From IMG/VR virus record IMGVR_UViG_3300048896_000068, positions 1-40,986 of that record: a stretch of DNA of 40,986 bases. One strand, written 5' to 3'. Both the position numbers and the translations under genes were made by a program. The notes beneath the pieces were generated by a model, which was not told the DNA's origin, did not search any database, and was given only the letters and a program-made list of their open reading frames with translations. This DNA is from a virus. Lineage: Duplodnaviria > Caudoviricetes. This document shows, piece by piece, positions 1 to 40,986 of the stretch (positions are counted from its first letter, which is position 1; each line of letters opens with the position of its first letter).

Positions 1-31
1 CACACTCCATACACGTAGTGTATGGAGTGTG
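1..31. repeat. Terminal perfect hairpin: 14-bp stem, 3-nt loop (GTA)
   Basis: 1-14 CACACTCCATACAC is the exact reverse complement of 18-31 GTGTATGGAGTGTG. Confidence 0.95.
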
Positions 32-462
32 TGCGGGGTGAGTCTAAAGCGCGTTAAGGGGTAATTACACTATATGCACGTGTTTTTCTGTGAAAAGTGA
101 GTGAGCGATTACTCACTAAAGGCAGTTGGACGTAGAAAGGGTGTATAACCATCGGTGCAATTGCACCCGGTACGGCACATCGTACAGTCATTTAGTAACA
201 GTGCTTAAGAGTGTAGGTAATCGGTATCCGGTTACATAGGCACATAGACACACAGGCTGTCAACCCTATAGTACATGGATATTGTACCACACTTTTTATG
301 AAAAGTCTAGTGGTGAGCGTTCACTCACTCATCAATATTAATTGTATATACACATGTGCTGTGTTTATATGCACACTAGAGGGAAGGTCAGACGTTGCAC
401 ATGCACGCTTTGGGGGATCCGGGGCAGGTACACGACCTAGTGGCATTTACCTAACATGTAAG

Positions 463-577
463 TGACCTATTTAGCATGAAGTGACCTATCACCAAACCCA
501 TGTTGATTGGTGTGACCTGACACGAAGAGAGATGACCTATCACCAATGCCATGCACATGGCTTGACCTGGTACGAAG
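463..577 (+). repeat. TGACCT iteron-like motifs, including a degenerate ~51-bp tandem duplication
   Basis: TGACCT at 463, 482, 513, 533, 563; TGACCTATCACCAA at 482 and 533; one inverted AGGTCA at 385. Confidence 0.85.
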
Positions 578-595
578 TGGCACTATGTGTTAGGA

Positions 596-639
596 TAAGT
601 GGTAGGTACGTGGTAGGTAAGTGGTAGGTAAGTGGTTGA
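596..639 (+). repeat. 4 x 11-bp tandem repeat TAAGTGGTAGG
   Basis: TAAGTGGTAGG TACGTGGTAGG TAAGTGGTAGG TAAGTGGTTGA. Confidence 0.9.
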
Positions 640-776
640 TATTGTTAGGAAATAGCATATAAGGGGGGTTGGTTAGAAGAGGTAGGAAGTGTGAGGAAGT
701 GTTAGGTACATGCGAGTATAATGCGTGGTACTACACGCCCATCCGATAGGGGGGTATACCCTTGATTCGCCTCTTC

Positions 777-805
777 AGTTTACACTATTTTGGGGTAAAT
801 GTCAA
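777..805 (-). promoter_or_regulatory. Outward-facing sigma70-type promoter in the left ITR
   Basis: TTGACA-17-TAAACT with extended TG; shares AAAWTAGTGTA with the late promoters. Confidence 0.7.
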
Positions 806-844
806 TAGCCGATGGTCGGGAAGTGGTTGGAAATTGGATATGTT

Positions 845-3370: not shown

Positions 3371-4297
3371 ATGACTGACGAAAAACAATCAGAAACCGCT
3401 GAAGCTTGGCCTAAAATTATTTATGAAAGTGCTATTAAAAATTATATGTCTGAATATGTGCATGGTCAGCCGGAAGTTTTAGACTTATTGGCTTTTATAG
3501 GTCATATGTATACACTACAAATGTTTGCACAAAAACATGATATTAGAAAGCAATCCCTACCGAGAGTTAATGCTTTAATTACTGGACCTACCGGATTTGG
3601 AAAAACATTCACAGTTAGAAAATTTGCAGAGTCATTGAATTTACCATATAAAAAAATTGATTGCTCGACTGTTAGTGCTGAGGGATGGCACGGAACAAAC
3701 CTTTCACAATATATAGAAGAGTATTTGAATACTAATCCAAAAGGATTTGGAATACTTCATTTAGACGAAGTAGACAAATTAGTCACAAGACACCACGGAG
3801 CTAAGCAAGAGTTACAATTAAGCTTATTAGAATTACTAGATGGCGATTATCACCATATGACTGATCATTATGACAGTAAGAAAAATAAAAAACTTGACAA
3901 TGTGAATAATAGTTTGATACTATTGTCAGGAAGCTTCCAAACTCAAAGAAACGAAGAAGCATCAAAAAAACATATTGGATTTAATTATAAAATTGATATT
4001 GATAATCGACCATGGAAAGAAAAATTAGACGAATTAGGTTTTATGCAGGAATTTTCAGCAAGGATTGTATGTAGCATAGAACTTAAAAAATATAACAGTG
4101 AGCAAGTTAGAACCATTTTAACTTATACTAAACAAAGTGTTTATAATAAATATTTAAATTTATTCGGGAGGTATGAAACATTAGAACCTGAAGAGATCGA
4201 CGAGATTGTTAAAAAGGTAGAAGAAAACAAAAACGGCCTTAGAGAACTCGATAGTTTATTATTTGAAAAATATTACGAGAAAAGGCGGAATAGATGA
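3371..4297 (+). CDS. ClpX/HslU-family AAA+ ATPase lacking the N-terminal Zn domain
   Basis: YVHGQ, Walker A GPTGFGKT, pore loop EGWHG, Walker B LHLDEVDK, Q..LLELLDG, IGF loop, EF.AR, NGLREL. Confidence 0.9.
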   Translation: MTDEKQSETAEAWPKIIYESAIKNYMSEYVHGQPEVLDLLAFIGHMYTLQMFAQKHDIRKQSLPRVNALITGPTGFGKTFTVRKFAESLNLPYKKIDCSTVSAEGWHGTNLSQYIEEYLNTNPKGFGILHLDEVDKLVTRHHGAKQELQLSLLELLDGDYHHMTDHYDSKKNKKLDNVNNSLILLSGSFQTQRNEEASKKHIGFNYKIDIDNRPWKEKLDELGFMQEFSARIVCSIELKKYNSEQVRTILTYTKQSVYNKYLNLFGRYETLEPEEIDEIVKKVEENKNGLRELDSLLFEKYYEKRRNR

Positions 4298-4782
4298 AAT
4301 TAACCTTAATTGGAACTGCTGCTATATTGGCGGTAATGTCTGGTACTTTTATGTATCATAGACATAATAATGAGAATAGATATATAGATGTAGATTTTTC
4401 TAAACCAAGTTCTGAAAAAAGACTATGTGTTATGGAACATTCTAAAGCTATATACTGTACTTGGGTAACACACGGTAGAAATTCTGGAGAGCTATATGCT
4501 ACAAGATTTTCTAATGAGAACGGAAGCGGAGAATCGAGTTTAGGAAAACTAAGAGTAGGTGAGAGTTATTATGGTAAACATGGACTGAGTTATCGTCTTG
4601 ACGGTCTTGAACCAGGCAAGAATGATAATGTAAGAAGTAGAGCCATAGTAATTCATGAAGCCGACTATATAGGGTATGGACGCACTGGAAGGTCATTAGG
4701 ATGTTTGGCCGTTCCTACTGATGATATAGAAACATTGTTTAAATATATTTATACTGGCATGATTATAAAAGCACATGTGTAA
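4294..4782 (+). CDS. Murein L,D-transpeptidase catalytic-domain protein (YkuD_2-like) with N-terminal anchor
   Basis: IDVDFSKPS, VTHGRNSG, FSN..GS..SSLG, LDGLEPGKNDN, IVIH.A.Y, GRSLGC. Confidence 0.88.
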   Translation: MKLTLIGTAAILAVMSGTFMYHRHNNENRYIDVDFSKPSSEKRLCVMEHSKAIYCTWVTHGRNSGELYATRFSNENGSGESSLGKLRVGESYYGKHGLSYRLDGLEPGKNDNVRSRAIVIHEADYIGYGRTGRSLGCLAVPTDDIETLFKYIYTGMIIKAHV

Positions 4783-4854: not shown

Positions 4855-5340
4855 ATGACTGAAAGTAAAATCTTAACCTCACCTGAAGGTGAAATCCTGT
4901 TTTCTAGTTTGAGATCTGCACGTAAAAATTCATTTACGGGAAATCTTGAATATTCAATGAGGATTGAAATTGACGGTGATGCAAAAGGCGCTGAGGAGTT
5001 TAAAAAAGCTCTGAAGAAAGTTAACAAAGCTCTAGTGGTCACTGAAGATTCAGAAGGCAATTCAGCGGTCAAAAAAGAGGGGAATTATATTGTCAATGCA
5101 AGAACTAAGGATCAACCTAAAGTTTTTGACAAGTCAAATGATACCCTGGAAACTGAACATATTCCTATGGTAGAAAGTGGAACCGCTAGAATTTTAGTAA
5201 CCACATTTGAAGGTAAGTCCGGGAAAGGCGGCGGTATTAATTTGGCCGGTGTCCAATTACTTGATATTACAGAGTACCAAGGAGCCGAACCAGTTGACGA
5301 AGACGAACTTAAGAAAGCACTAAAAATGAAACATGCTTAA
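4855..5340 (+). CDS. Single-stranded DNA-binding protein (T7 gp2.5/DUF2815-like)
   Basis: EYSMRIEI, P.VFD, L.GVQLL pattern, acidic C-terminal stretch; directly upstream of PolA. Confidence 0.7.
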   Translation: MTESKILTSPEGEILFSSLRSARKNSFTGNLEYSMRIEIDGDAKGAEEFKKALKKVNKALVVTEDSEGNSAVKKEGNYIVNARTKDQPKVFDKSNDTLETEHIPMVESGTARILVTTFEGKSGKGGGINLAGVQLLDITEYQGAEPVDEDELKKALKMKHA

Positions 5341-5439: not shown

Positions 5440-7476
5440 ATGGCTATAGGAATAGACTTTGAAAGCTATTTGATTAGTAATGAATCACCAATTCCAAAGC
5501 CTGTTTGTTTATCGTGGGCCGAAGATAGAAAAAAAGGTTTATTAATAGGTCAAGACATGGAAAGTTATTTAAAAAAACAAATGGAAGCAAACAAAATGCT
5601 TGTGGCTCATAATGCTACATTTGAAACAATGGTAATATATCAACATTTTCCAAAACTTAGAAAACTTCTAGTAAAACATATAGAAGATGGAAACTTTTTT
5701 TGTACGCAGTTATATCAACAACTATTAGATAATTTAGATAAAAAAGAATCGGGAGATAAATCTTTAGCAGGTCTTGTTTTAAAATATTATAAAAAAGATA
5801 TATCAGAGGACAAGAAAAAACCGGATGCATGGCGATTAAGATATAGTGAGCTAGATGGTATTCCGCTTAGTGAGTGGCCTGACGAAGCAAAAGACTATGC
5901 AATCATGGACTCTGTATATGCTAGGGATATATACGAAACTCAAATGAGAACAAACCCACGAATTATTTATAAAACCCACTTGCTTGCATCATTTTGTTTA
6001 AATATGTTTGCATCAAGAGGTATACTAATTGAGAAAGAACGGGTAATAACCCTTGATAAAGAAATTAATGATATTTTAAACCCTACTTATCACAATCTAG
6101 AGTCACAAGGATTTATGAAGAGAGATAAGAAAGGAAAGCTTTCTAAAAACGTAAAGATATTACAAGAATATATTATAGAGAATTTTGACAATTTAATGAG
6201 AACCGATAAAGGCGCGGTGCAAGTATCAGGTGAAGCATTAGACTTTTACGGATTGGAAAAAGAAGATGAAATTATTAAAGCATTTAGATATATTGGACAA
6301 TATGAAAAAGCTAAGACAGCATTTGTGGCAAGGCTTAAAACGGCAGATCCAGTTATTAGGACTGGTTATAACGCTATTGTTAGATCGGGTAGAACTAGCA
6401 GCCGTGCTACGACTGCTTACCCTTCGGTCAACATACAGCAACAACCTCGTGGCCTTAAAGGTGTTACATGGGACATCAGAAATTGTTATATCCCCCGACA
6501 AGGATTTAAACTTGTCACAATCGACTATAATAACCTTGAATTACTATCATGTGCTAATCAGTTGTATTCTGTCTATGGTAAATCTAATATGTGCGACCTT
6601 ATTAACAGTGGCACTAGTCCTACTGATTTACATTCTGTTTTTGCATGTGAGTTAATGAGTTCAGATACTAAAAGGGTTATATTATATGATGAATATGTCG
6701 CAAACAAAAAGAAAGAAGGCTGGAAAGAATATCGACAAAAGGGAAAGCCAGTTACCTTGGGTGTACCAGGTGGAATGGGGTACGATACAATTCGAACGCA
6801 GTTTAACAAGGAAGGAATTAACCTACCTTTCGACATATTACAAAGATGTCAATACGAAGTTGTTGCAAGAAGACTTGTCAGAAAATACCAACAAGAATAT
6901 CCATCAATCAGAGTTAAGCGAACAGGTAAAAAAGAATGGTCAGTCGTATTTGATGAAATTGTTAAGCTCAAAAAGATTTTATTTAAATTATATCCAGAGC
7001 TTGAAATGTTTCTCAAAGAAGGCCACTTGAAATATGTTAATGGAGAATTTGGATACACTAAAAATGAGTATGGAGAATGGGAAAAGGAACCATATTACAA
7101 ATATAAAACTTTAGGGGTAGAACGGGATTACTGCACATACACGGCTTTTACTAATGGATTTTTGATGCAAGCTCCCTCAGCGGTTGGGGCAAAAAAAGCA
7201 GGGGTAAATATCTTCAAAGAGTATGCTGAATGCGATGAAGTGTACCCACTCGCTTTTATTCATGATGAATATATCTTTGAAATTAAAGACAATAATAATT
7301 TACAAAAACATGTTGACAGATGCGCCGAAATTATGGTAGACTCAATGAAGAGTGTATTGACTTCAGTCAGAGTGGCAGTAGAAGCCGAAATCAAGGACTA
7401 TTGGTCAAAAGACATTTGTTTAAGTTCCCGCAATTACTGGAAAGATAAAAACTCAACTGAATTGAAATATAAATGA
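5440..7476 (+). CDS. polA: Family A DNA polymerase with 3'-5' exonuclease domain
   Basis: ExoI IDFES, AHNATFE, YAIMDS; SGRTSS, NIQQQPR, motif A IDYNNLEL, DLH, motif B RQKGKPVTLG, motif C IHDE. Confidence 0.95.
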   Translation: MAIGIDFESYLISNESPIPKPVCLSWAEDRKKGLLIGQDMESYLKKQMEANKMLVAHNATFETMVIYQHFPKLRKLLVKHIEDGNFFCTQLYQQLLDNLDKKESGDKSLAGLVLKYYKKDISEDKKKPDAWRLRYSELDGIPLSEWPDEAKDYAIMDSVYARDIYETQMRTNPRIIYKTHLLASFCLNMFASRGILIEKERVITLDKEINDILNPTYHNLESQGFMKRDKKGKLSKNVKILQEYIIENFDNLMRTDKGAVQVSGEALDFYGLEKEDEIIKAFRYIGQYEKAKTAFVARLKTADPVIRTGYNAIVRSGRTSSRATTAYPSVNIQQQPRGLKGVTWDIRNCYIPRQGFKLVTIDYNNLELLSCANQLYSVYGKSNMCDLINSGTSPTDLHSVFACELMSSDTKRVILYDEYVANKKKEGWKEYRQKGKPVTLGVPGGMGYDTIRTQFNKEGINLPFDILQRCQYEVVARRLVRKYQQEYPSIRVKRTGKKEWSVVFDEIVKLKKILFKLYPELEMFLKEGHLKYVNGEFGYTKNEYGEWEKEPYYKYKTLGVERDYCTYTAFTNGFLMQAPSAVGAKKAGVNIFKEYAECDEVYPLAFIHDEYIFEIKDNNNLQKHVDRCAEIMVDSMKSVLTSVRVAVEAEIKDYWSKDICLSSRNYWKDKNSTELKYK

Positions 7477-7499: not shown

Positions 7500-8117
7500 A
7501 TGATTATATTAGACATGGAACAAAGATCACCGGAGTGGTATGCTGCAAGGTTAGGGGTTTTAACTGCTAGTGCTTGTGAATATATTATGACTCCGGCACA
7601 AAGAAAAGGGTTTGTCAATAAAATGATTGCTGAAATCGTTACCGGACAGCCTGAACCTTTTCCGACTAATGAGTATATGCAGTGGGGTATTGATACCGAA
7701 GACGAAGCTAGATTATATTACGAATCTAAAACAGGAAATAAGGTACGACAAGTTGGATTTGTTTATAAGGATGAATCGGAAAAGGTAGGATGCTCACCCG
7801 ACGGATTAGTAGACAAAGGCGGATTAATAGAGATTAAATGTCCTATGTCTAAAACACATATTGGATATATGTTAGACGGACCTCCTAAAAAATATTACAT
7901 GCAAATGCAATTTCAAATGTATGTCACTAATCGGCTATGGTGTGATTTTATGTCTTTTGATCCTAGATTACCCGAAGAAATGAAATCATATATTGTGCGA
8001 ATTGATAGAGATCCTGAAACTATTTTTAAAATAGAAGCGTCTATCAAAAGCACAATTAAAGAGATTGATACATTTCTTGCTGATCATGGTCATTCCTGGA
8101 AACAAACTAAGGGTTAA
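7500..8117 (+). CDS. YqaJ / lambda-exonuclease family nuclease
   Basis: QRSPEWYAARLG..TAS, WG...E..A, CSPDGLV, IEIKCP, YYMQMQ.QM. Confidence 0.95.
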   Translation: MIILDMEQRSPEWYAARLGVLTASACEYIMTPAQRKGFVNKMIAEIVTGQPEPFPTNEYMQWGIDTEDEARLYYESKTGNKVRQVGFVYKDESEKVGCSPDGLVDKGGLIEIKCPMSKTHIGYMLDGPPKKYYMQMQFQMYVTNRLWCDFMSFDPRLPEEMKSYIVRIDRDPETIFKIEASIKSTIKEIDTFLADHGHSWKQTKG

Positions 8118-9552: not shown

Positions 9553-9770
9553 TGAATGAGCGAAAAAGTACGATGTACTATCAAGAAATCATTTCATTGC
9601 TTGATAATATGGAGAGGGCCGCCGATGTAGGATCGTCAATTGGATATGAAGCAAGGAAGCTGCTTCACTTTGTAGAGCAATATGGATTTCAAAAAGCTTT
9701 AGAAGCACGTATTGATGCTGGATTCCCACCACTAGAACCACTAAACACGGATGAAAACGACGATGGCTAA
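9552..9770 (+). CDS. Hypothetical protein
   Basis: Translationally coupled ORF in operon. Confidence 0.6.
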   Translation: MNERKSTMYYQEIISLLDNMERAADVGSSIGYEARKLLHFVEQYGFQKALEARIDAGFPPLEPLNTDENDDG

Positions 9771-10287
9771 GCTACCTAGAAAATTTGTTTTTCCTTGGCC
9801 CCCTAGCATTAATTCACTTTATTGTCAAGGCAAGACACACGGACAAAAGTTTTTAACTAAAACGGGTAAGGAATATAAACAAAAAATTATAGAACTACAT
9901 GCTAATGATGATTTAGATCCAATAGCAGTACCAATAAAAGTTAGAATAGAGTTGTTCCCGCCGGATAGAAGAACTAGAGACGTAGATAACTATATAAAGC
10001 CACTTCTTGACGGATTAAAGTTTTTAGAGTTGATACAAGACGATAGTTTTATAAATACACTATTAGTTTTAAAACATCCTAAGAATTTGAAATATAATAA
10101 AGGACTAGCACTAGTCTATATAAAAGAAGATGTAGAAAGGTCAAATAGAGACGATAAAATATTAGAGTATTTAGCAGATAATGGTTTTAGTGAATCTGAA
10201 TATATGACACGATTTCATATTGAGACAAAAAGAAGTGATGAAAGATATAAAAGAGAATTAAAAAAGCTAGAAGGTGGTGATCAATGA
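9751..10287 (+). CDS. rusA: RusA-family Holliday junction resolvase
   Basis: FPWPPSINSLY, PPDRRTRDVDNYIKPLLDGL, DDS. Confidence 0.95.
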   Translation: MKTTMAKLPRKFVFPWPPSINSLYCQGKTHGQKFLTKTGKEYKQKIIELHANDDLDPIAVPIKVRIELFPPDRRTRDVDNYIKPLLDGLKFLELIQDDSFINTLLVLKHPKNLKYNKGLALVYIKEDVERSNRDDKILEYLADNGFSESEYMTRFHIETKRSDERYKRELKKLEGGDQ

Positions 10288-10457
10288 GCATCATGATAGG
10301 TATATCAGACAAAAAGGTTTATATAAATATTTACAAATCTTATACTAAAGACTTAGACCATGTTATTACTAGTAAAAAAGAGTTAGAGTCTATAATACAA
10401 GAATTGCAGCACTATAAGAATGTACTATATAATAATAATAAAAAGGATGGTGTATAA
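10284..10457 (+). CDS. 57-aa hypothetical protein
   Basis: ATGA/TAATG coupling on both sides; C-terminal motif similar to ORF 23308-23502. Confidence 0.6.
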   Translation: MSIMIGISDKKVYINIYKSYTKDLDHVITSKKELESIIQELQHYKNVLYNNNKKDGV

Positions 10458-11008
10458 TGACAGGTATAGTAATAGATAAATTTATGGACACTGTTTTTGT
10501 ATTTGCGGATGGTCGATTAACTGGTAATGATCACGGATGGATTTATTCAGATACAGATGATAAAATAAGAAAGCTTGACGAAGAAACTATTATAACTAAT
10601 TGTGGAGAAGCTCACCTTATAGATAGTTGTGAAACACTTATTTTGGAAGGCAACTTTGAACAAGAGCATTTAAATAAGGTCAAAGGCGACGGATCAGTTA
10701 TTATAGCCACGTCTGACCACATTAAAACCATTGACTTTGCTATTTTCAATGAGGATTCAGAGAAAGAAACGGTATATAGAGCTAATCTATCTACCTATAA
10801 GCACTCAGCCTTACCTATGTTCTTTGGTTCAGGTATGGAGTGTTTATCATCAGCATATGCAGCCTTAGACATGAAAGATTGTAAGACTGAAAAAGAATAT
10901 TTATCTAAAATGAAAAAAGTTTTTAAAGCTGCTTGCAGTCGGATGTCAAGTATGGGACCATTAAGACAAACAGAGTCTATAAAATTGTCTAAGGATAAAA
11001 AGAAATGA
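10457..11008 (+). CDS. Ntn-hydrolase, proteasome-beta/HslV-like protein (paralog 1)
   Basis: Thr after Met, ADGR (Asp17), DKI, CG, FGSG motifs in proteasome spacing. Confidence 0.75.
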   Translation: MTGIVIDKFMDTVFVFADGRLTGNDHGWIYSDTDDKIRKLDEETIITNCGEAHLIDSCETLILEGNFEQEHLNKVKGDGSVIIATSDHIKTIDFAIFNEDSEKETVYRANLSTYKHSALPMFFGSGMECLSSAYAALDMKDCKTEKEYLSKMKKVFKAACSRMSSMGPLRQTESIKLSKDKKK

Positions 11009-16528: not shown

Positions 16529-16908
16529 TAAAAATTATTGTAGATGTTAATAGACAAGCAATAAGAAATAAATCTGGATATTTACATGCTTTACGTTTTG
16601 ACTTTATTGACTTAAACGGACAATATAGAGGGCTACAAATTCGTATGTATTCGCCTGGCCAATATGCAGATCACGACAAATTGCAAGAAGAGGAATCATT
16701 AAAGAAAATTAAGCATATAATTATATCACAGCTTGACATCAGCGGAAAAATCCGTCAAAATTATCAAAAGCTACAAACTATAGACATTGGAGATCCGTAT
16801 CAACATCAATCTATTATTAGAAATGTAGAACGACTAAATAAATTATCTGAAAGCATAGAACTAAATATAAAGGAGCAACCAGATTATGACAGTAATTGTA
16901 TTATCTAA
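16525..16908 (+). CDS. Hypothetical protein
   Basis: Coupled ORF, 127 aa. Confidence 0.65.
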   Translation: MIKIIVDVNRQAIRNKSGYLHALRFDFIDLNGQYRGLQIRMYSPGQYADHDKLQEEESLKKIKHIIISQLDISGKIRQNYQKLQTIDIGDPYQHQSIIRNVERLNKLSESIELNIKEQPDYDSNCII

Positions 16909-17410
16909 ACATGAAAATCATTATTATATGCACGCTGACGGTAGAACCTCTCAAGACTGGATGGGTATTGCTTCGGATAATTCCGTAAAAGTTCACACTG
17001 GTAAAGATTGCATCTATGGGACATGTGGTAGAGCAGCAGCAAAAGTGATTGTAAAAGCATTACTAAGTAGGACAAGAGATCCTCTTAAAATGGCTAAGCT
17101 TTTACACCATAAAGATTTTAAAGACATTTTACAGGAATCATCTACATTAGTTGCCACAAAAAAACATGGTTGTTATTCTATCAATATTAGAGGAGCTAGC
17201 CTATTTTCTCCTAAAGCGGATCATAGTATTATTACATGGGATTTAGATACATTGCCCCAAATTTTAGGATCTGGCTTTTTAAATGTTAGAACATTACTTG
17301 CACAATATGATAAGCCTACACCGGAGCAAGTCAGAAAAGCTATTGAAGATTCTTATAAGGTTAACCACACCATAGGCGGATTGATTTCAGAGGTTAAATT
17401 AAAATGTTAA
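16886..17410 (+). CDS. Ntn-hydrolase, proteasome-beta/HslV-like protein (paralog 2)
   Basis: Thr after Met, ADGR (Asp17), VKV, GTCG, LGSG, TIGG; AGGAG RBS. Confidence 0.75.
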   Translation: MTVIVLSKHENHYYMHADGRTSQDWMGIASDNSVKVHTGKDCIYGTCGRAAAKVIVKALLSRTRDPLKMAKLLHHKDFKDILQESSTLVATKKHGCYSINIRGASLFSPKADHSIITWDLDTLPQILGSGFLNVRTLLAQYDKPTPEQVRKAIEDSYKVNHTIGGLISEVKLKC

Positions 17411-17503: not shown

Positions 17504-17806
17504 ATGAAAAGTAGGTTGTATGCATTTAATTTACAATTAGAATTAGATAAATATGGAAATAAGAATCTATGGATCAGTGGGGTAGACATCCCTATTTGTC
17601 AACATGACTATCAAGGCAATTATACTTTAGGTAATGGAATTAAAAGATTATTTAAAAAGTTATATGAATATGAATCGTCAGATAGGTTAAATATAACAGT
17701 TAATAGATTAGTAGACCTAGTAAAGGAATATGAAGACTCAAAAATAGATGATGAATTTAAAGAAGCTGTTGCAAAAGTCTTACAAGATTGGACAAAATTA
17801 ATTTGA
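17504..17806 (+). CDS. Hypothetical protein
   Basis: GAGGTG RBS before ATG 17504. Confidence 0.65.
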   Translation: MKSRLYAFNLQLELDKYGNKNLWISGVDIPICQHDYQGNYTLGNGIKRLFKKLYEYESSDRLNITVNRLVDLVKEYEDSKIDDEFKEAVAKVLQDWTKLI

Positions 17807-18678
17807 AACATAATAAATTATTACTAATCTTTTTATCATTCATTTTGCTTGGAGAAGCAATATTTACCGGCCTATTACCAGTTTCCAGAGGGCATTTATT
17901 CTCCCTATTATCCTCTAAGCTTCCAGGAATCTGGATCGCATTGCTTTTATACTTCCTAACTTACTTTGCTATTGACTTTTTCCAGTCTTTCAAAGGCTAT
18001 ATGGTTTTAAAAGTTTCTTTGTGGTATCGAGAGATAAGGACAAGTTCAATAGTGGAACATATTAAATTTAGAGATAATTCAAGGGAACCAGAGGACTACT
18101 TGTGGTCACTTAAACATTGCTTACCTTCAAATACACCTCAAAGGATCCAAGAAGATATTAAACTTTCTTATTGGTCACGTATAGAAGTGTGGTGTGAGTA
18201 CATTGTGAGTACAGTAATCTTAATGCAACTATTTTTACTAAATTTGAGTGAACCTACACTAATTATTTGTGCTTTAATCTATGCCTCTGTAAGCGTCTTC
18301 ATTGCCTTAAAGTTTAATCCCCGGCTAACTACTGCTGAAATATCAAGTCAGCAAGCTGAAGCCTGTTTTCGTACTAGTTTGGTTGCTTCTATTACTGACA
18401 TAGGATTACTTAGCTTTGTTAACAGTACGCTGATGAAGGCTGCTAGAATTAGGACTGAGTATTTGCTATTTACCAAGTTACAACTAGGAATAGTTGCTGT
18501 TTTACCTTATGCCATATTGATTCCTAAGTTGATGTCTGGTAGTATGGATTTAGGTACATTAGTGAAGCATCAAGCTACTTTTGCTTTAATAGTTGTAAAT
18601 GCAGCAGTATTGATTCAGATGTTCCCTAAATTGATTCAAGGTAAAGCATCTGAAACACGAGTAAAGGAGATTATATAA
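17788..18678 (+). CDS. SbmA/BacA- or YddA-like transporter transmembrane domain (no ATPase)
   Basis: Several TM helices; NTPQRIQEDI (cf. NPDQRIxED), EACFRTSL (EAA-like), LPY..L.P...SG...LG. Confidence 0.8.
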   Translation: MDKINLKHNKLLLIFLSFILLGEAIFTGLLPVSRGHLFSLLSSKLPGIWIALLLYFLTYFAIDFFQSFKGYMVLKVSLWYREIRTSSIVEHIKFRDNSREPEDYLWSLKHCLPSNTPQRIQEDIKLSYWSRIEVWCEYIVSTVILMQLFLLNLSEPTLIICALIYASVSVFIALKFNPRLTTAEISSQQAEACFRTSLVASITDIGLLSFVNSTLMKAARIRTEYLLFTKLQLGIVAVLPYAILIPKLMSGSMDLGTLVKHQATFALIVVNAAVLIQMFPKLIQGKASETRVKEII

Positions 18679-21505: not shown

Positions 21506-22108
21506 GTGCGAGAATCTTTAGAGACACAATATTTAAAAATGCTGCTTTGTAGTCAAATGGAATTTGATACTCAATACTCTAAAAATATATTAGGATTTCA
21601 TGCTGAAAAGCGTATCTGCCACTATTTAAACCATCTAGCTAAATATAGCAATGATGATGACTTCAAAGTTTTTATGAGAAATAAAACCTACCATAAAACT
21701 AAAACTGACTTCTTGATTATCATACTTTGTTTGTTAAATATGTCTGATCAAAAGCTTGATACTACTCAGACTATTACTAGTCAATCTTACAATAGTCTCT
21801 TAAAAACTATTTTCTTTAAAAAAGATGAATGGGATCATACAGCTAATCTTGAATGGAAGGATAGTATGTTTGAATCACTAAAAGTACTATATCAAAAGTA
21901 TATACACGATTTTGGTTTTATTAGCATGTCTTGGCTTGACCAAAGGCGTAAAGAGTGGTACAATAAATTAGAAACTCAAAAACTAAAAGATCACGCAAAT
22001 GATACTTTGGAATATGTTGATAAGTATGAAAAAGGTAAAAACTATGAACGTAGACGCACTGGTAAAAGAAACACTACAATCTCTACAAAGACTAAAGTCG
22101 GATCCTGA
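21506..22108 (+). CDS. Hypothetical protein (200 aa)
   Basis: AAGGGG RBS, GTG start; no motif recognised. Confidence 0.7.
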   Translation: MRESLETQYLKMLLCSQMEFDTQYSKNILGFHAEKRICHYLNHLAKYSNDDDFKVFMRNKTYHKTKTDFLIIILCLLNMSDQKLDTTQTITSQSYNSLLKTIFFKKDEWDHTANLEWKDSMFESLKVLYQKYIHDFGFISMSWLDQRRKEWYNKLETQKLKDHANDTLEYVDKYEKGKNYERRRTGKRNTTISTKTKVGS

Positions 22109-22863: not shown

Positions 22864-23078
22864 ATTTAAAACAGTTTAGACAAATTCTTAGAGAGTTGAG
22901 ACGTAGAACAAGACTATCTAAAGATAAAAAATTTTTAGATACTCCACAACCTAAACAAGATTCAGAAATATTAGATGTTTTAAGTAATACTATTTATAAC
23001 TTAGAGTGTGAACAAAGAAGAGTCAGACATTTAATTAGATCGGATTTAAACCACGTAGAAAAGTGGATAGATGAATAA
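22860..23078 (+). CDS. Hypothetical protein
   Basis: ATGA coupling. Confidence 0.55.
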   Translation: MNLKQFRQILRELRRRTRLSKDKKFLDTPQPKQDSEILDVLSNTIYNLECEQRRVRHLIRSDLNHVEKWIDE

Positions 23079-23311
23079 TGTATCTAGACTGGATCGCGTC
23101 CGGCATCGGCATTTGTGGCTGCTATTTAGTAGGTAAGGGCAAACGTTATGGATGGCTTCTATTTGCTTCGGCTTCATCAATCAATATTTATATCGGCTAT
23201 CATGCAGGGATGTTGGGGCTTGCCGCTGGTTGTGCCTGTTACTTCATGCTCGAAATCAAAGGATGGTGGTATCACCATCACCCAAAATCCGACGATAAGG
23301 AAAAAACATGA
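23078..23311 (+). CDS. Half-size PnuC-like 3-TM protein
   Basis: LDWIAS..GI.G.YL....KRYGW...GWW. Confidence 0.65.
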   Translation: MYLDWIASGIGICGCYLVGKGKRYGWLLFASASSINIYIGYHAGMLGLAAGCACYFMLEIKGWWYHHHPKSDDKEKT

Positions 23312-34732: not shown

Positions 34733-34743
34733 ATTTTATCCCC

Positions 34744-35232
34744 TTAAGAAGATGATACCAAGCTTTTAGCTTGAAGTGCTGCAATTATAGCATTTACAGC
34801 GGTTGCTATTTGTGTACCTGTTGCAGTATTGCCTATTGTAGCAATCAGTGTTTCAGGTGTTATATTTAAGTCAGTATAATTTCCAGACGTGGCAACTGTT
34901 GCAAAATCTGCACTAACTGTATAATCTGCTGCATCTTCAGCAGCCATAGTACCTAGCGTAGGCTTATTTGTCAAATCATCATAGTTGCCGGTGAAGTCTG
35001 GAGCTACATATGATTCACTAGAAGTATACGATCCAGAAACTAGAGTAACTCTATAATTTCTTGGATTATTAAATGGACCAATAACAACCACATCACTAGC
35101 AGATATTGCAGTAAATCCAGTAGGTTGATCCCCTGGATTACCAATATTTACATAATGTCCAGATGCACTAATATCAAAAGTTAAAGTAACTTGTACATCT
35201 GCGGGTAAAAAGAAAGTAGTAACATTAGTCAT
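34744..35232 (-). CDS. Head decoration/fibre protein, paralog 2
   Basis: Clear similarity to 35243-35614 plus a GNYDDL.NKP / ATSGNYTDL fibre insert. Confidence 0.65.
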   Translation of the reverse strand: MTNVTTFFLPADVQVTLTFDISASGHYVNIGNPGDQPTGFTAISASDVVVIGPFNNPRNYRVTLVSGSYTSSESYVAPDFTGNYDDLTNKPTLGTMAAEDAADYTVSADFATVATSGNYTDLNITPETLIATIGNTATGTQIATAVNAIIAALQAKSLVSSS

Positions 35233-35242
35233 AAATTAATCC

Positions 35243-35614
35243 TTATGGAGCGCTCATCAAGCCTTTTGCTATAAGAGCTGCAATTAAAGCATTTACAGCA
35301 GTTGCTATCTGTGTACCAGTAGCAGAGTTACCAATCGTAGCTGCATTAGCTTCCGGGGTAATTGCTAAACTTGAATAATTAATTTTATGAGCTGAAGCAC
35401 TAGTGTAAGAACCGTTAGTTAATACCACTTCATAGTGTTTAGGTACTGTAAACGGTCCAATGACTTTTACTTGACTTGCTGAAATTGTGGTAACTTCGGA
35501 ATGAACATCGCCTGGATCGCCAATGTTTGAATAATATCCGCTAGATAGAGCATCAAAAGTTAATGTTATTTGAGTATCAGCGGGTAAAAAGAAAGTATTG
35601 CGAGATTCTGCCAT
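35243..35614 (-). CDS. Head decoration/fibre protein, paralog 1
   Basis: Follows the capsid gene; C-terminal VNALIAAL..KGL. Confidence 0.65.
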   Translation of the reverse strand: MAESRNTFFLPADTQITLTFDALSSGYYSNIGDPGDVHSEVTTISASQVKVIGPFTVPKHYEVVLTNGSYTSASAHKINYSSLAITPEANAATIGNSATGTQIATAVNALIAALIAKGLMSAP

Positions 35615-39068: not shown

Positions 39069-40334
39069 TTAATTTCCTCTTAGATAATCCACTGGAATAT
39101 GTATAACAGGCTTTCTCACAGGCATTTCGTAGGCTATTATATATCCAGTTGCATCATTTTGATGATCCTTACCACTTTTCTTGTCTGGCTCTCCGTTTTC
39201 ACTATACGCTTGTTGTAACAAACAGTCTGAAACGGTAGGACACAAAAGCTTATTGATATATAATTTACCTGAACTAAATGCTTGGTTGACCGCTATTATT
39301 CGATCCTTCACTAAAGGATTTTTTCTAGGCGCTCTAATTTCAAATCCTGCTTGTTGCAACAAAGCAATGTCACTAACACTTGCATTTGTAGAATGTCTAC
39401 TCACGCCCGAAGCATCAGGATAACAAATAATATGATGACCTAAAAATCTTTCTTTTAATATTTTAATCATCGCCGGAGTATCATAAATATTTTTAAGTTC
39501 GTCGACTACATGAAGTTCTTTATTACCATTTCTCCATACTGCAATAGTAGCAGCCATCTTGGTGACGTTAAAATCCATACCCACAAAAAGATTTTCATTA
39601 GGTAACATTTTTTCTGTACTATTATGAGCGTCTTTATCATATGATTTATAAACTGCACCTGATTGTAAGTTTACAAACTCACCTTCGATATACGCTTTTA
39701 CTAATTCTTTGTCATAAGAATCTTCTAGAGATTTAATATAATCATCTGGTAAGAACGGATTAGAATAACTAGAAGCTCTAACCATTTCGTAGCCATCAGC
39801 TTGTTTAGTTACCCATCTATCATACATGAAATTAAATCCTTCAGGTGTAGAATATGCACAAACTCTATTCATTGCACCAGGAACATGTATTTTTTGTCTA
39901 TTTCTACCTAAAATTTTATTCCATGCTTCATTAGCTTGTTTTATTGGTAAAATGTCTATTTCGTCTATATGAGATCTATATGATTCATAGCCTACGATTC
40001 TTTCGGGACTGTCTAACGACCTTAAAATAAAATTTCCAAATTGTGATGTTTTAGTTTCAATTAAATTTTTTGTTTGATTATAATCATATTCAATACCGAA
40101 ATCAGACAATTTCAACATCAATCGAGGAGCTAATATCAATCGAACAAGATCATAAGTAGGCGCATATAGTGCTATTAAAGCATCTTTACTAATTGATGCA
40201 TCAATAATAGCTTGATTGCACATTGTTTCAGACTTACCAGATCCATAACCGCCTACAAATGCAGGATACTTACAAGTCAGCGAATGAAACGCCGCTTGTG
40301 GTTCAGTTACTCGCATTTTAATTGATTTAGGCAT
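39069..40334 (-). CDS. terL: Terminase large subunit
   Basis: GGYGSGKS, YAPTY, IDE, STPEGF, SNPFLP, GMDFN, PDASG, DH..DA.GY. Confidence 0.96.
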   Translation of the reverse strand: MPKSIKMRVTEPQAAFHSLTCKYPAFVGGYGSGKSETMCNQAIIDASISKDALIALYAPTYDLVRLILAPRLMLKLSDFGIEYDYNQTKNLIETKTSQFGNFILRSLDSPERIVGYESYRSHIDEIDILPIKQANEAWNKILGRNRQKIHVPGAMNRVCAYSTPEGFNFMYDRWVTKQADGYEMVRASSYSNPFLPDDYIKSLEDSYDKELVKAYIEGEFVNLQSGAVYKSYDKDAHNSTEKMLPNENLFVGMDFNVTKMAATIAVWRNGNKELHVVDELKNIYDTPAMIKILKERFLGHHIICYPDASGVSRHSTNASVSDIALLQQAGFEIRAPRKNPLVKDRIIAVNQAFSSGKLYINKLLCPTVSDCLLQQAYSENGEPDKKSGKDHQNDATGYIIAYEMPVRKPVIHIPVDYLRGN

Positions 40335-40375: not shown

Positions 40376-40690
40376 TTATACTTTATTTGGGATTATCTCT
40401 ACTGTTATTGCTTCAAAGCTGTCATCTATTGATAACTCTTCTTTAGCTTTTGGCAATTCGTCCCATTTACCTAAGCATTTTAGCCAGTAAATAGCGGACT
40501 GCACATTTCCATCCATAGCCATCATATAAAGATGGTTTGCTACTTCTACCGTTCTATTTATCGCTGCTGTGTTAATTGTTTCTGAGTGTTCAGCCATTAG
40601 AGCATCTTTAGTGACACCGAAGTATTTAGCAATATCATTAGCTGATATACCAGCTTCGGCTAAATCTTTAACAGTTCTAATTCTACTCAT
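40376..40690 (-). CDS. terS: Terminase small subunit (HTH)
   Basis: LA..G.S..DIA.YFGV, LY..A..GN....IYWLK; likely start 40690, downstream of the promoter. Confidence 0.8.
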   Translation of the reverse strand: MSRIRTVKDLAEAGISANDIAKYFGVTKDALMAEHSETINTAAINRTVEVANHLYMMAMDGNVQSAIYWLKCLGKWDELPKAKEELSIDDSFEAITVEIIPNKV

Positions 40691-40724
40691 AAGATATACA
40701 GCCTTTGAAAGACAGATAGGGAGT

Positions 40725-40753
40725 ATTATAGCATAAATAAAGTTTATTGTCAA
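40725..40753 (-). promoter_or_regulatory. Consensus sigma70 promoter for the packaging operon
   Basis: TTGACA-17-TATAAT with extended TG. Confidence 0.85.
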
Positions 40754-40909
40754 GCTATTTTTTAATGAGTACTTATCTGTATCTATTTTGGTACAATATT
40801 GAGTACATATATGTAACACAAAACGCCTATTTTTAAACATATTTATAAAACGTGTATAGAAATCGTGCTTTTTTAAACATGTGGCAACTTCCCCACACTA
40901 ATGCAAGAT

Positions 40910-40986
40910 AACCACTTCCCGACCATCGGCTATTGACATTTACCCCAAAATAGTGTAAACTGAAGAGGCGAATCAAGGGTATACCC
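40910..40986. repeat. Right copy (77 bp visible) of the inverted terminal repeat, including an outward promoter at 40933-40961
   Basis: Exact reverse complement of 752-828. Confidence 0.95.

Follow-up and report, generated by a model that had tools for sequence, protein, structure and literature searches.

A terminase-encoding tailed phage with a long inverted terminal repeat and a putative hairpin tip

How does a tailed phage with a full terminase come to carry an inverted repeat at both of its ends, and what form do those ends take? The question is raised by IMG/VR record IMGVR_UViG_3300048896_000068 (Duplodnaviria; Caudoviricetes), which IMG/VR classes as 'linear' and 100% complete, and whose positions 1 to 40,986, the whole stretch analysed, we call the window. 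A first-pass annotation, made from the letters alone, described a 14-bp fold-back around GTA at the start of the window and a final 77 bp that are the reverse complement of 752-828. Both descriptions are correct: the reverse complement of 1-14 recurs exactly at 18-31, after a GTA loop (15-17) that is closed by a C-G pair, and 40910-40986 (minus strand) is 100% complementary to 752-828. We regard these last 77 nt, a length that would match the usual assembler k, as the stub of a second copy of an inverted terminal repeat (ITR). The contig represents the 811-bp body of this repeat (18-828) by a single collapsed copy, as unitig depths in two sequencing runs indicate.

Seven soil metagenome runs are listed for the phage; we compared five of them (X1-X5), as contigs, the other two (X6 and X7) representing small shares. 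X1 and X2 possibly represent the source sample itself, and all of X1-X5 perhaps belong to one campaign. The graph of X2 contains one 40,141-nt unitig, both of whose ends overlap 799-828, and a separate 803-nt repeat unitig (26-828) at a depth of 25.7 versus 18.1; the repeat unitig of X1 is 811 nt long (18-828), at a depth of 24.6 versus 16.4. Base 828 runs on into the side of the small terminase gene (terS) in X1, X3 and X4, and into 829 in X5, and the junction between repeat and unique sequence falls on the same base across all five runs.

The first-pass annotation expected a depth of about 2x over 1-828, but the measured ratios are 1.50 (X1) and 1.42 (X2), values that GC bias could shift. 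For comparison, we simulated fragmentation with inserts of 250-550. Two terminal copies then give a ratio of 1.46-1.76 if tip fragments are lost and 2.08-2.20 if they are kept, an internal repeat gives 1.98-2.02, and one repeat copy gives 0.76-0.90. The repeat is present in more than one copy, both repeat-unique junctions occur, and coverage is lost at the tips. Because the junction unitigs and the depth ratios match the simulated case of two copies with tip loss, we take repeat-unique-repeat as the best reading of the molecule, with a length of about 41.7 kb and depleted tips. The earlier claim that both ends carry 1-828 thus stands insofar as both sides are joined to the repeat, in the five assembly graphs and in a syntenic relative, but its extent is revised, since the repeat consists of an 811-bp body (18-828) and the loop. 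We consider it very likely that the ITR is real. Its sequence gave no match in a blastn search of 1-900 against 50,697 phage records, nor at the nucleotide level against the loci of relatives of the phage's DNA polymerase (PolA), and the single Rfam match within 1-1400 lies far under its cut-off.

The syntenic relative, G001, is the closest among the whole records examined, with identities of 61% for PolA, 60% for the large terminase (TerL) and 73% for the capsid protein. It has inverted repeat stubs at the orthologous places, one immediately upstream of terS and the other past the AAA gene. The stub is 123 nt long, which is likely to be the k of that assembler, because 123 nt is the end overlap of G005 and G028 too. 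The tip of G001 is unseen, so that the putative hairpin has one example and the ITR two. Among 23 other whole records, G001 is the one with an inverted end repeat; 11 have direct repeats (in one case, G006, via a tandem array), 10, many of them fragments, have none, and one (G021) has a 19-nt local match. Of the related contigs, in which the first pass suggested looking for the same end structure, G001 has its inverted repeat at the same place, and more distant kin (11 of 23 records) assemble as circles.

In a TerL tree (FastTree, 33 sequences, midpoint root) the window and G001 are sisters (0.94), and the same clade holds G027, G028 and G031, all of them without PolA and with direct repeats. 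We noticed no change in TerL that was specific to the two ITR phages. The unannotated non-structural ORFs common to both comprise only an HslV-like protein, a 103-aa ORF and an 81-aa ORF, and the Holliday junction resolvase RusA, found also in the direct-repeat relatives G005 and G028, is not specific to ITR phages. The ITR looks confined to a small clade; that it arose from circular-map ancestors is only suggested, given a midpoint root and two ITR genomes.

We now turn to the tip. The terminal fold-back (1-31, plus strand), with its 14-bp arms 1-14 and 18-31, has a DNA folding energy of -14.1 kcal/mol, and it is the sole perfect palindrome with arms of at least 10 and a loop of at most 10 in the 40,986-nt window. 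It is known from one assembly only, in which the second arm is just 14 nt long, and the contigs, as distinct from raw reads, show a GTA loop and no TAC loop. As a control we took 753 distinct ends of loci, many but not all of them contig ends, one of which has a terminal fold-back with an arm of at least 10. This is the 3' end of L209, a distant PolA-family contig, with a 17-bp fold-back and a 14-nt loop, which could be either a chimera or a further end of the fold-back kind. A scan of viral contigs for the tip motif yielded 49 matches, none at a contig end, which we attribute to chance.

Of the 64 triloops tested in GCNNNGC, the GNA class alone gave exonuclease-resistant mini-hairpins, GTA being the weakest GNA (PMC13037366). 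The C-GTA-G loop of the window belongs to this class, its second pair being A-T as against the GC-GNA-GC of the tested mini-hairpins. The tip should also leave a trace in an assembly graph: by simulation at k=31, a long palindrome or a flip/flop tip gives base 18 two predecessors, and so a branch. The X1 repeat unitig starts at base 18, matching this prediction, whereas that of X2 starts at 26, so the X1 start may be chance. No contig continuing past the tip is listed in the 68-82% of X1 and X2 that was read, with short records filtered. In the two low-depth runs X3 and X4, contigs both end exactly at 170, where a small ccg-GTA-cgg stem-loop lies beside a 14-bp palindrome (154-167), and two contigs of X3 meet at 387/388 with no shared bases; these stops possibly mark a preferred end or nick, or else a fragmentation bias. 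With indirect support from the X1 start at 18 and the C-GNA-G loop, we favour a hairpin or palindromic tip, whose ends would be covalently closed, and think it fairly likely that the fold-back is biological.

The repeat contains several short features of putative function. The palindrome GTGAG-N6-CTCAC, a candidate protein-binding site, occurs twice (101-116 and 313-328). Five direct TGACCT repeats within about 105 bp (463-568, plus strand), out of 14 on the plus strand of the whole window, may form an iteron-like or TerS-binding array. They are followed by an 11-bp tandem repeat (596-639, plus strand) in a G-rich, C-poor tract (42 G and 2 C in 601-700). A sigma-70-like promoter match, TTGACA-17-TAAACT, faces outward to the tip (777-805, minus strand); such sites are not enriched, at 7 versus 5.0 +/- 2.7 in shuffles. 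By eye, the G001 repeat has TTGACA-17-TATGTT in the same orientation, and an alignment of the two repeats gave no convincing homology. The longest ORF in the repeat (298-465) matches no protein family.

The siphophage structural set is present, with TerL, portal, major capsid protein (MCP), tail tube and tape measure. As first reported, the phage encodes a PolA (5440-7476, plus strand), a terminase (TerL, 39069-40334, minus strand) and RusA (9751-10287, plus strand). PolA is a divergent family A DNA polymerase with a 3'-5' exonuclease, located between a Gp2.5/Enc34-like SSB (4855-5340) and a YqaJ/lambda-type exonuclease (7500-8117), both on the plus strand. The DxDN..K and downstream DD motifs of RusA, which we take to be catalytic, align with E. 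coli RusA (1q8r, E=2e-12), and the enzyme looks intact in its sequence. TerL matches Salmonella phage TerL, such as that of VSiP, at 56%, and it keeps all the acidic residues conserved in its family, including D254, D307, D390 and D394; since it matches no PDB sequence, its catalytic residues are assigned by conservation only. A degenerate TerL nuclease was looked for and not found, the acids of the nuclease domain being kept. The ORF that precedes terL and abuts the repeat (40376-40840, minus strand) is likely terS; it matches the G001 ORF in the same place at 43% and has a weak HTH match and no PHROG match. Genes run inward from either end of the window, and the cumulative GC skew converges in the same way.

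PolA belongs to a large uncultured family: of 7,994 scored candidates, 282 are related to it at E<=1e-30. Its identity to cultured phages is only about 22%, closer relatives (63-87%) occur in the protein database, and none of 9 candidates in GTDB contigs proved to be a relative. The phages with related PolA carry varied cargo: PrkA and DUF444 in G006 and G008, SpoVR in G008, a GroEL-type chaperonin in G003, and ParA, TetR and OmpA-like genes in G005. Relatives of the MCP (43-57% identity) are spread over varied bacteria and so point to no host.

The first pass had recognised neither a protelomerase nor a protein-primed PolB, and domain searches agree. When the window and G001 were searched in all six frames, neither genome matched protelomerase (PF16684) or tyrosine recombinase (PF00589) at E<=1; nor did either match PolB2 (PF03175), a weaker negative, since no genome of the positive control passed the cut-off. 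None of the three families occurs among the 77 window ORFs. No RepA primase-helicase or ParA/B was found among the 77 ORFs, the window has no integrase match, and no phage ligase is annotated. DnaB_C, Toprim_2 and Prim-Pol are each absent from the window and its PolA-family kin (0 of 5 genomes, ITR or circular-map, including G004, G005 and G008). We dropped the idea that a missing primase and helicase point to self-priming, because the direct-repeat relatives G004, G005 and G008 do without them too.

Two further candidates for a role at the ends were rejected: the AAA gene as a helicase, as it is ClpX/HslU-like, and the ORF at 10457-11008 as an end-processing enzyme, as it is HslV/proteasome-like. 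The ClpX/HslU-like ATPase (3371-4297) and two HslV-like peptidases starting Met-Thr (10457-11008 and 16886-17410) are likely, judging by their sequences, to form a phage-encoded ATP-dependent protease; an HslV-like gene adjoins the ATPase in G001, and a Clp protease lies near it in G004. The window also carries unusual envelope-related cargo, namely a Tle1-like phospholipase, a YkuD L,D-transpeptidase, and SbmA/BacA-like and PnuC-like genes (1334-2299, 4294-4782, 17788-18678 and 23078-23311), as well as tandem paralogous small virion genes at 34742-35597 (a 101-nt repeat, 77% identity, 499 nt apart). The ORF at 21506-22108 has a weak NCBIfam match only.

Known end systems offer several points of comparison. 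In poxviruses and rudiviruses, ITRs and hairpins go with head-to-head concatemers and a proposed viral Holliday junction resolvase (PMC5062984, PMC9415595). Like Poxviridae and Rudiviridae (SIRV2), the window has long inverted repeats on both sides of the genome and a Holliday junction resolvase that the virus itself encodes, but it belongs to a tailed siphophage that encodes a terminase, a portal protein and PolA. Its resolvase is RusA rather than the RuvC-type A22 of poxviruses, its hairpin tips are putative, and no Rep nickase or primase is recognised in it. By analogy, the ends likely work as poxvirus or rudivirus ends do, in a terminase phage. N15, phiKO2 and PY54 are not known to have a long ITR, and their virion DNA is cos-ended. 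They are tailed phages with hairpin-ended DNA, the hairpins being found on the prophage and dependent on protelomerase (PMC5062984, PMC13230959), whereas the window has no match to a protelomerase, integrase or ParA and its repeat adjoins terS. The ITRs of phi29 are 6 bp long and bind terminal protein (bioRxiv 10.64898/2026.10.21.760668). The window shares with phi29-type phages the inverted repeats at both genome ends, but it has an 811-bp repeat and PolA, and neither a PolB2 nor an annotated candidate for a terminal protein. Such 5' terminal proteins are poorly conserved. T7, itself a PolA phage, forms a hairpin in its concatemer near the genome end during end duplication; it differs in having direct repeats at its ends and in forming the hairpin as a transient intermediate.

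The nearest described case is Matilda, a Burkholderia jumbo phage that, with Sarumanvirus, is lytic and terminase-encoding and has long inverted repeats hidden as k-mer stubs (bioRxiv 10.64898/2026.10.21.760668). The two repeats of Matilda (1.5 and 18 kb) are unrelated to each other and each surrounds a terminal segment that flips, and the word 'hairpin' is absent from its main text (bioRxiv 10.64898/2026.10.21.760668). The window, by contrast, has one repeat flanking the entire genome, and a fold-back end, with no segment listed past the tip. In the literature covered, which is incomplete, we found no ITR or hairpin terminase phage described that lacks a protelomerase.

We tentatively favour, at a probability of roughly 0.4, a hairpin-tipped genome with an 811-bp ITR whose ends are regenerated by RusA cutting a head-to-head cruciform. 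The 41.7-kb genome would be linear, its tips being closed or nicked hairpins through the C-GTA-G loop. PolA and SSB would copy inward from the repeats, a direction that the converging genes and GC skew suggest, and also round the tip, which would yield a 1,625-bp palindromic head-to-head junction with a GTA/TAC centre. This junction would extrude as a cruciform, and cutting by RusA, plausibly acting as an analogue of A22, would produce flip and flop hairpin ends. Sealing would fall to the host ligase, since the phage has none annotated, and the terminase would package unit-length DNA starting from the repeat adjoining terS. The resolving enzyme may be either RusA or TerL: TerL is a real competitor because its nuclease domain looks intact and because RusA occurs in direct-repeat relatives. 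The retention of the nuclease-domain acids, needless for an enzyme that packages without cutting, counts against the favoured reading.

It is important to consider a symmetric, cos-like cut of the same palindromic junction between the same ITRs by the terminase. The cut would leave a 31-nt self-complementary overhang or a nicked hairpin, which would fold and then be sealed or extended after entry. The position of the repeat beside terS in both the window and G001 agrees with such a cut, as do the intact acidic residues of TerL and the direct repeats and palindromes of the repeat as candidate TerS-binding sites, and the 14-nt arm at the contig start would follow if the DNA were nicked at a constant point 14 bp from the loop. 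Open ends, however, normally keep their tip fragments in ligation libraries, which predicts a ratio of about 2.1-2.2 rather than 1.42-1.50, for a library type that is unrecorded. Moreover, the TerL kin G027, G028 and G031 have circular maps, no TerL change is specific to the two ITR phages, and cos overhangs are not known to be as long as the 31-nt stagger. Symmetric cutting by TerL is the strongest alternative, although an unlikely one; taken jointly, resolution by RusA and cutting by TerL are probable.

It is less likely still that the ITRs are real and the fold-back is a rare library chimera, with open or blocked ends upheld otherwise, such as through recombination of one repeat with the other. 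A single assembly supplies the fold-back, the arm is short, X2 stops at 26, a similar structure exists at the control end L209, and the stops of X3 and X4 at 170 may hint at another preferred end. Yet the fold-back lies exactly at the dead-end tip, X1 starts at 18, a C-GNA-G loop would arise by chance in an estimated 1 case in 32, and no protein-primed PolB was found that could copy open ITR ends.

We also consider improbable a circular or circularly permuted map with no special ends, packaged by headful as in the TerL kin, in which the repeats form an internal 1.6-kb palindrome or surround an unassembled spacer. A de Bruijn graph can not separate a hairpin end from a palindromic junction, and the TerL kin do have direct repeats. 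An internal repeat with a spacer, however, predicts a depth of about 2.0 and one fixed unitig start, whereas the repeat unitig begins at 18 in X1 and at 26 in X2, in neither case with a listed neighbour. In bacteria, a long perfect palindrome is unstable; a palindrome without a spacer, subject to snap-back loss, is the form of this explanation that survives.

Very improbable, in our view, is the making of hairpins by a telomere resolvase that is host-encoded or unrecognisably divergent. The many small ORFs without annotation leave room for one, as do MCP relatives in varied bacteria, but PF16684 and PF00589 have no match at E<=1 in either ITR genome, few unannotated non-structural ORFs are shared between them, and the centre here is an odd 3-nt loop, whereas protelomerase targets are perfect even palindromes. 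Finally, ITRs occur in 5% of gut phage representatives, an excess treated as possible artefact among Caudoviricetes contigs (PMC9610469), but an assembly or amplification artefact here, or a single copy with a flipping unique region, is largely refuted by junction bases that agree across five runs, a depth above 1 where a single copy would give 0.76-0.90, and the matching layout of G001, a separate record at about 60% protein identity.

In one published view, protein priming is the way in which ITR-bearing Caudoviricetes replicate (PMC9610469). Because this phage joins a real 0.8-kb ITR to PolA and a full terminase, some such ITR contigs, at the least, mark a different strategy at the ends. 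On balance, we think it somewhat more likely than not that it is a lytic terminase phage whose unit-length ITR virion DNA, hairpin-closed or folding, is made without protelomerase by RusA or the terminase. It would then represent a new class of Caudoviricetes ends: in circular-map ancestors the region upstream of terS would have been duplicated in inverted orientation, and databases would conceal such genomes under the labels 'linear' or 'k-mer ITR' contig. The circular-map sister phages with close TerL provide its natural comparison. If the tips are hairpins, the portal-terminase motor has either to cope with closed ends during loading and ejection or to produce them, and the DNA would enter the cell without free ends, which may bear on escape from RecBCD-type nucleases.
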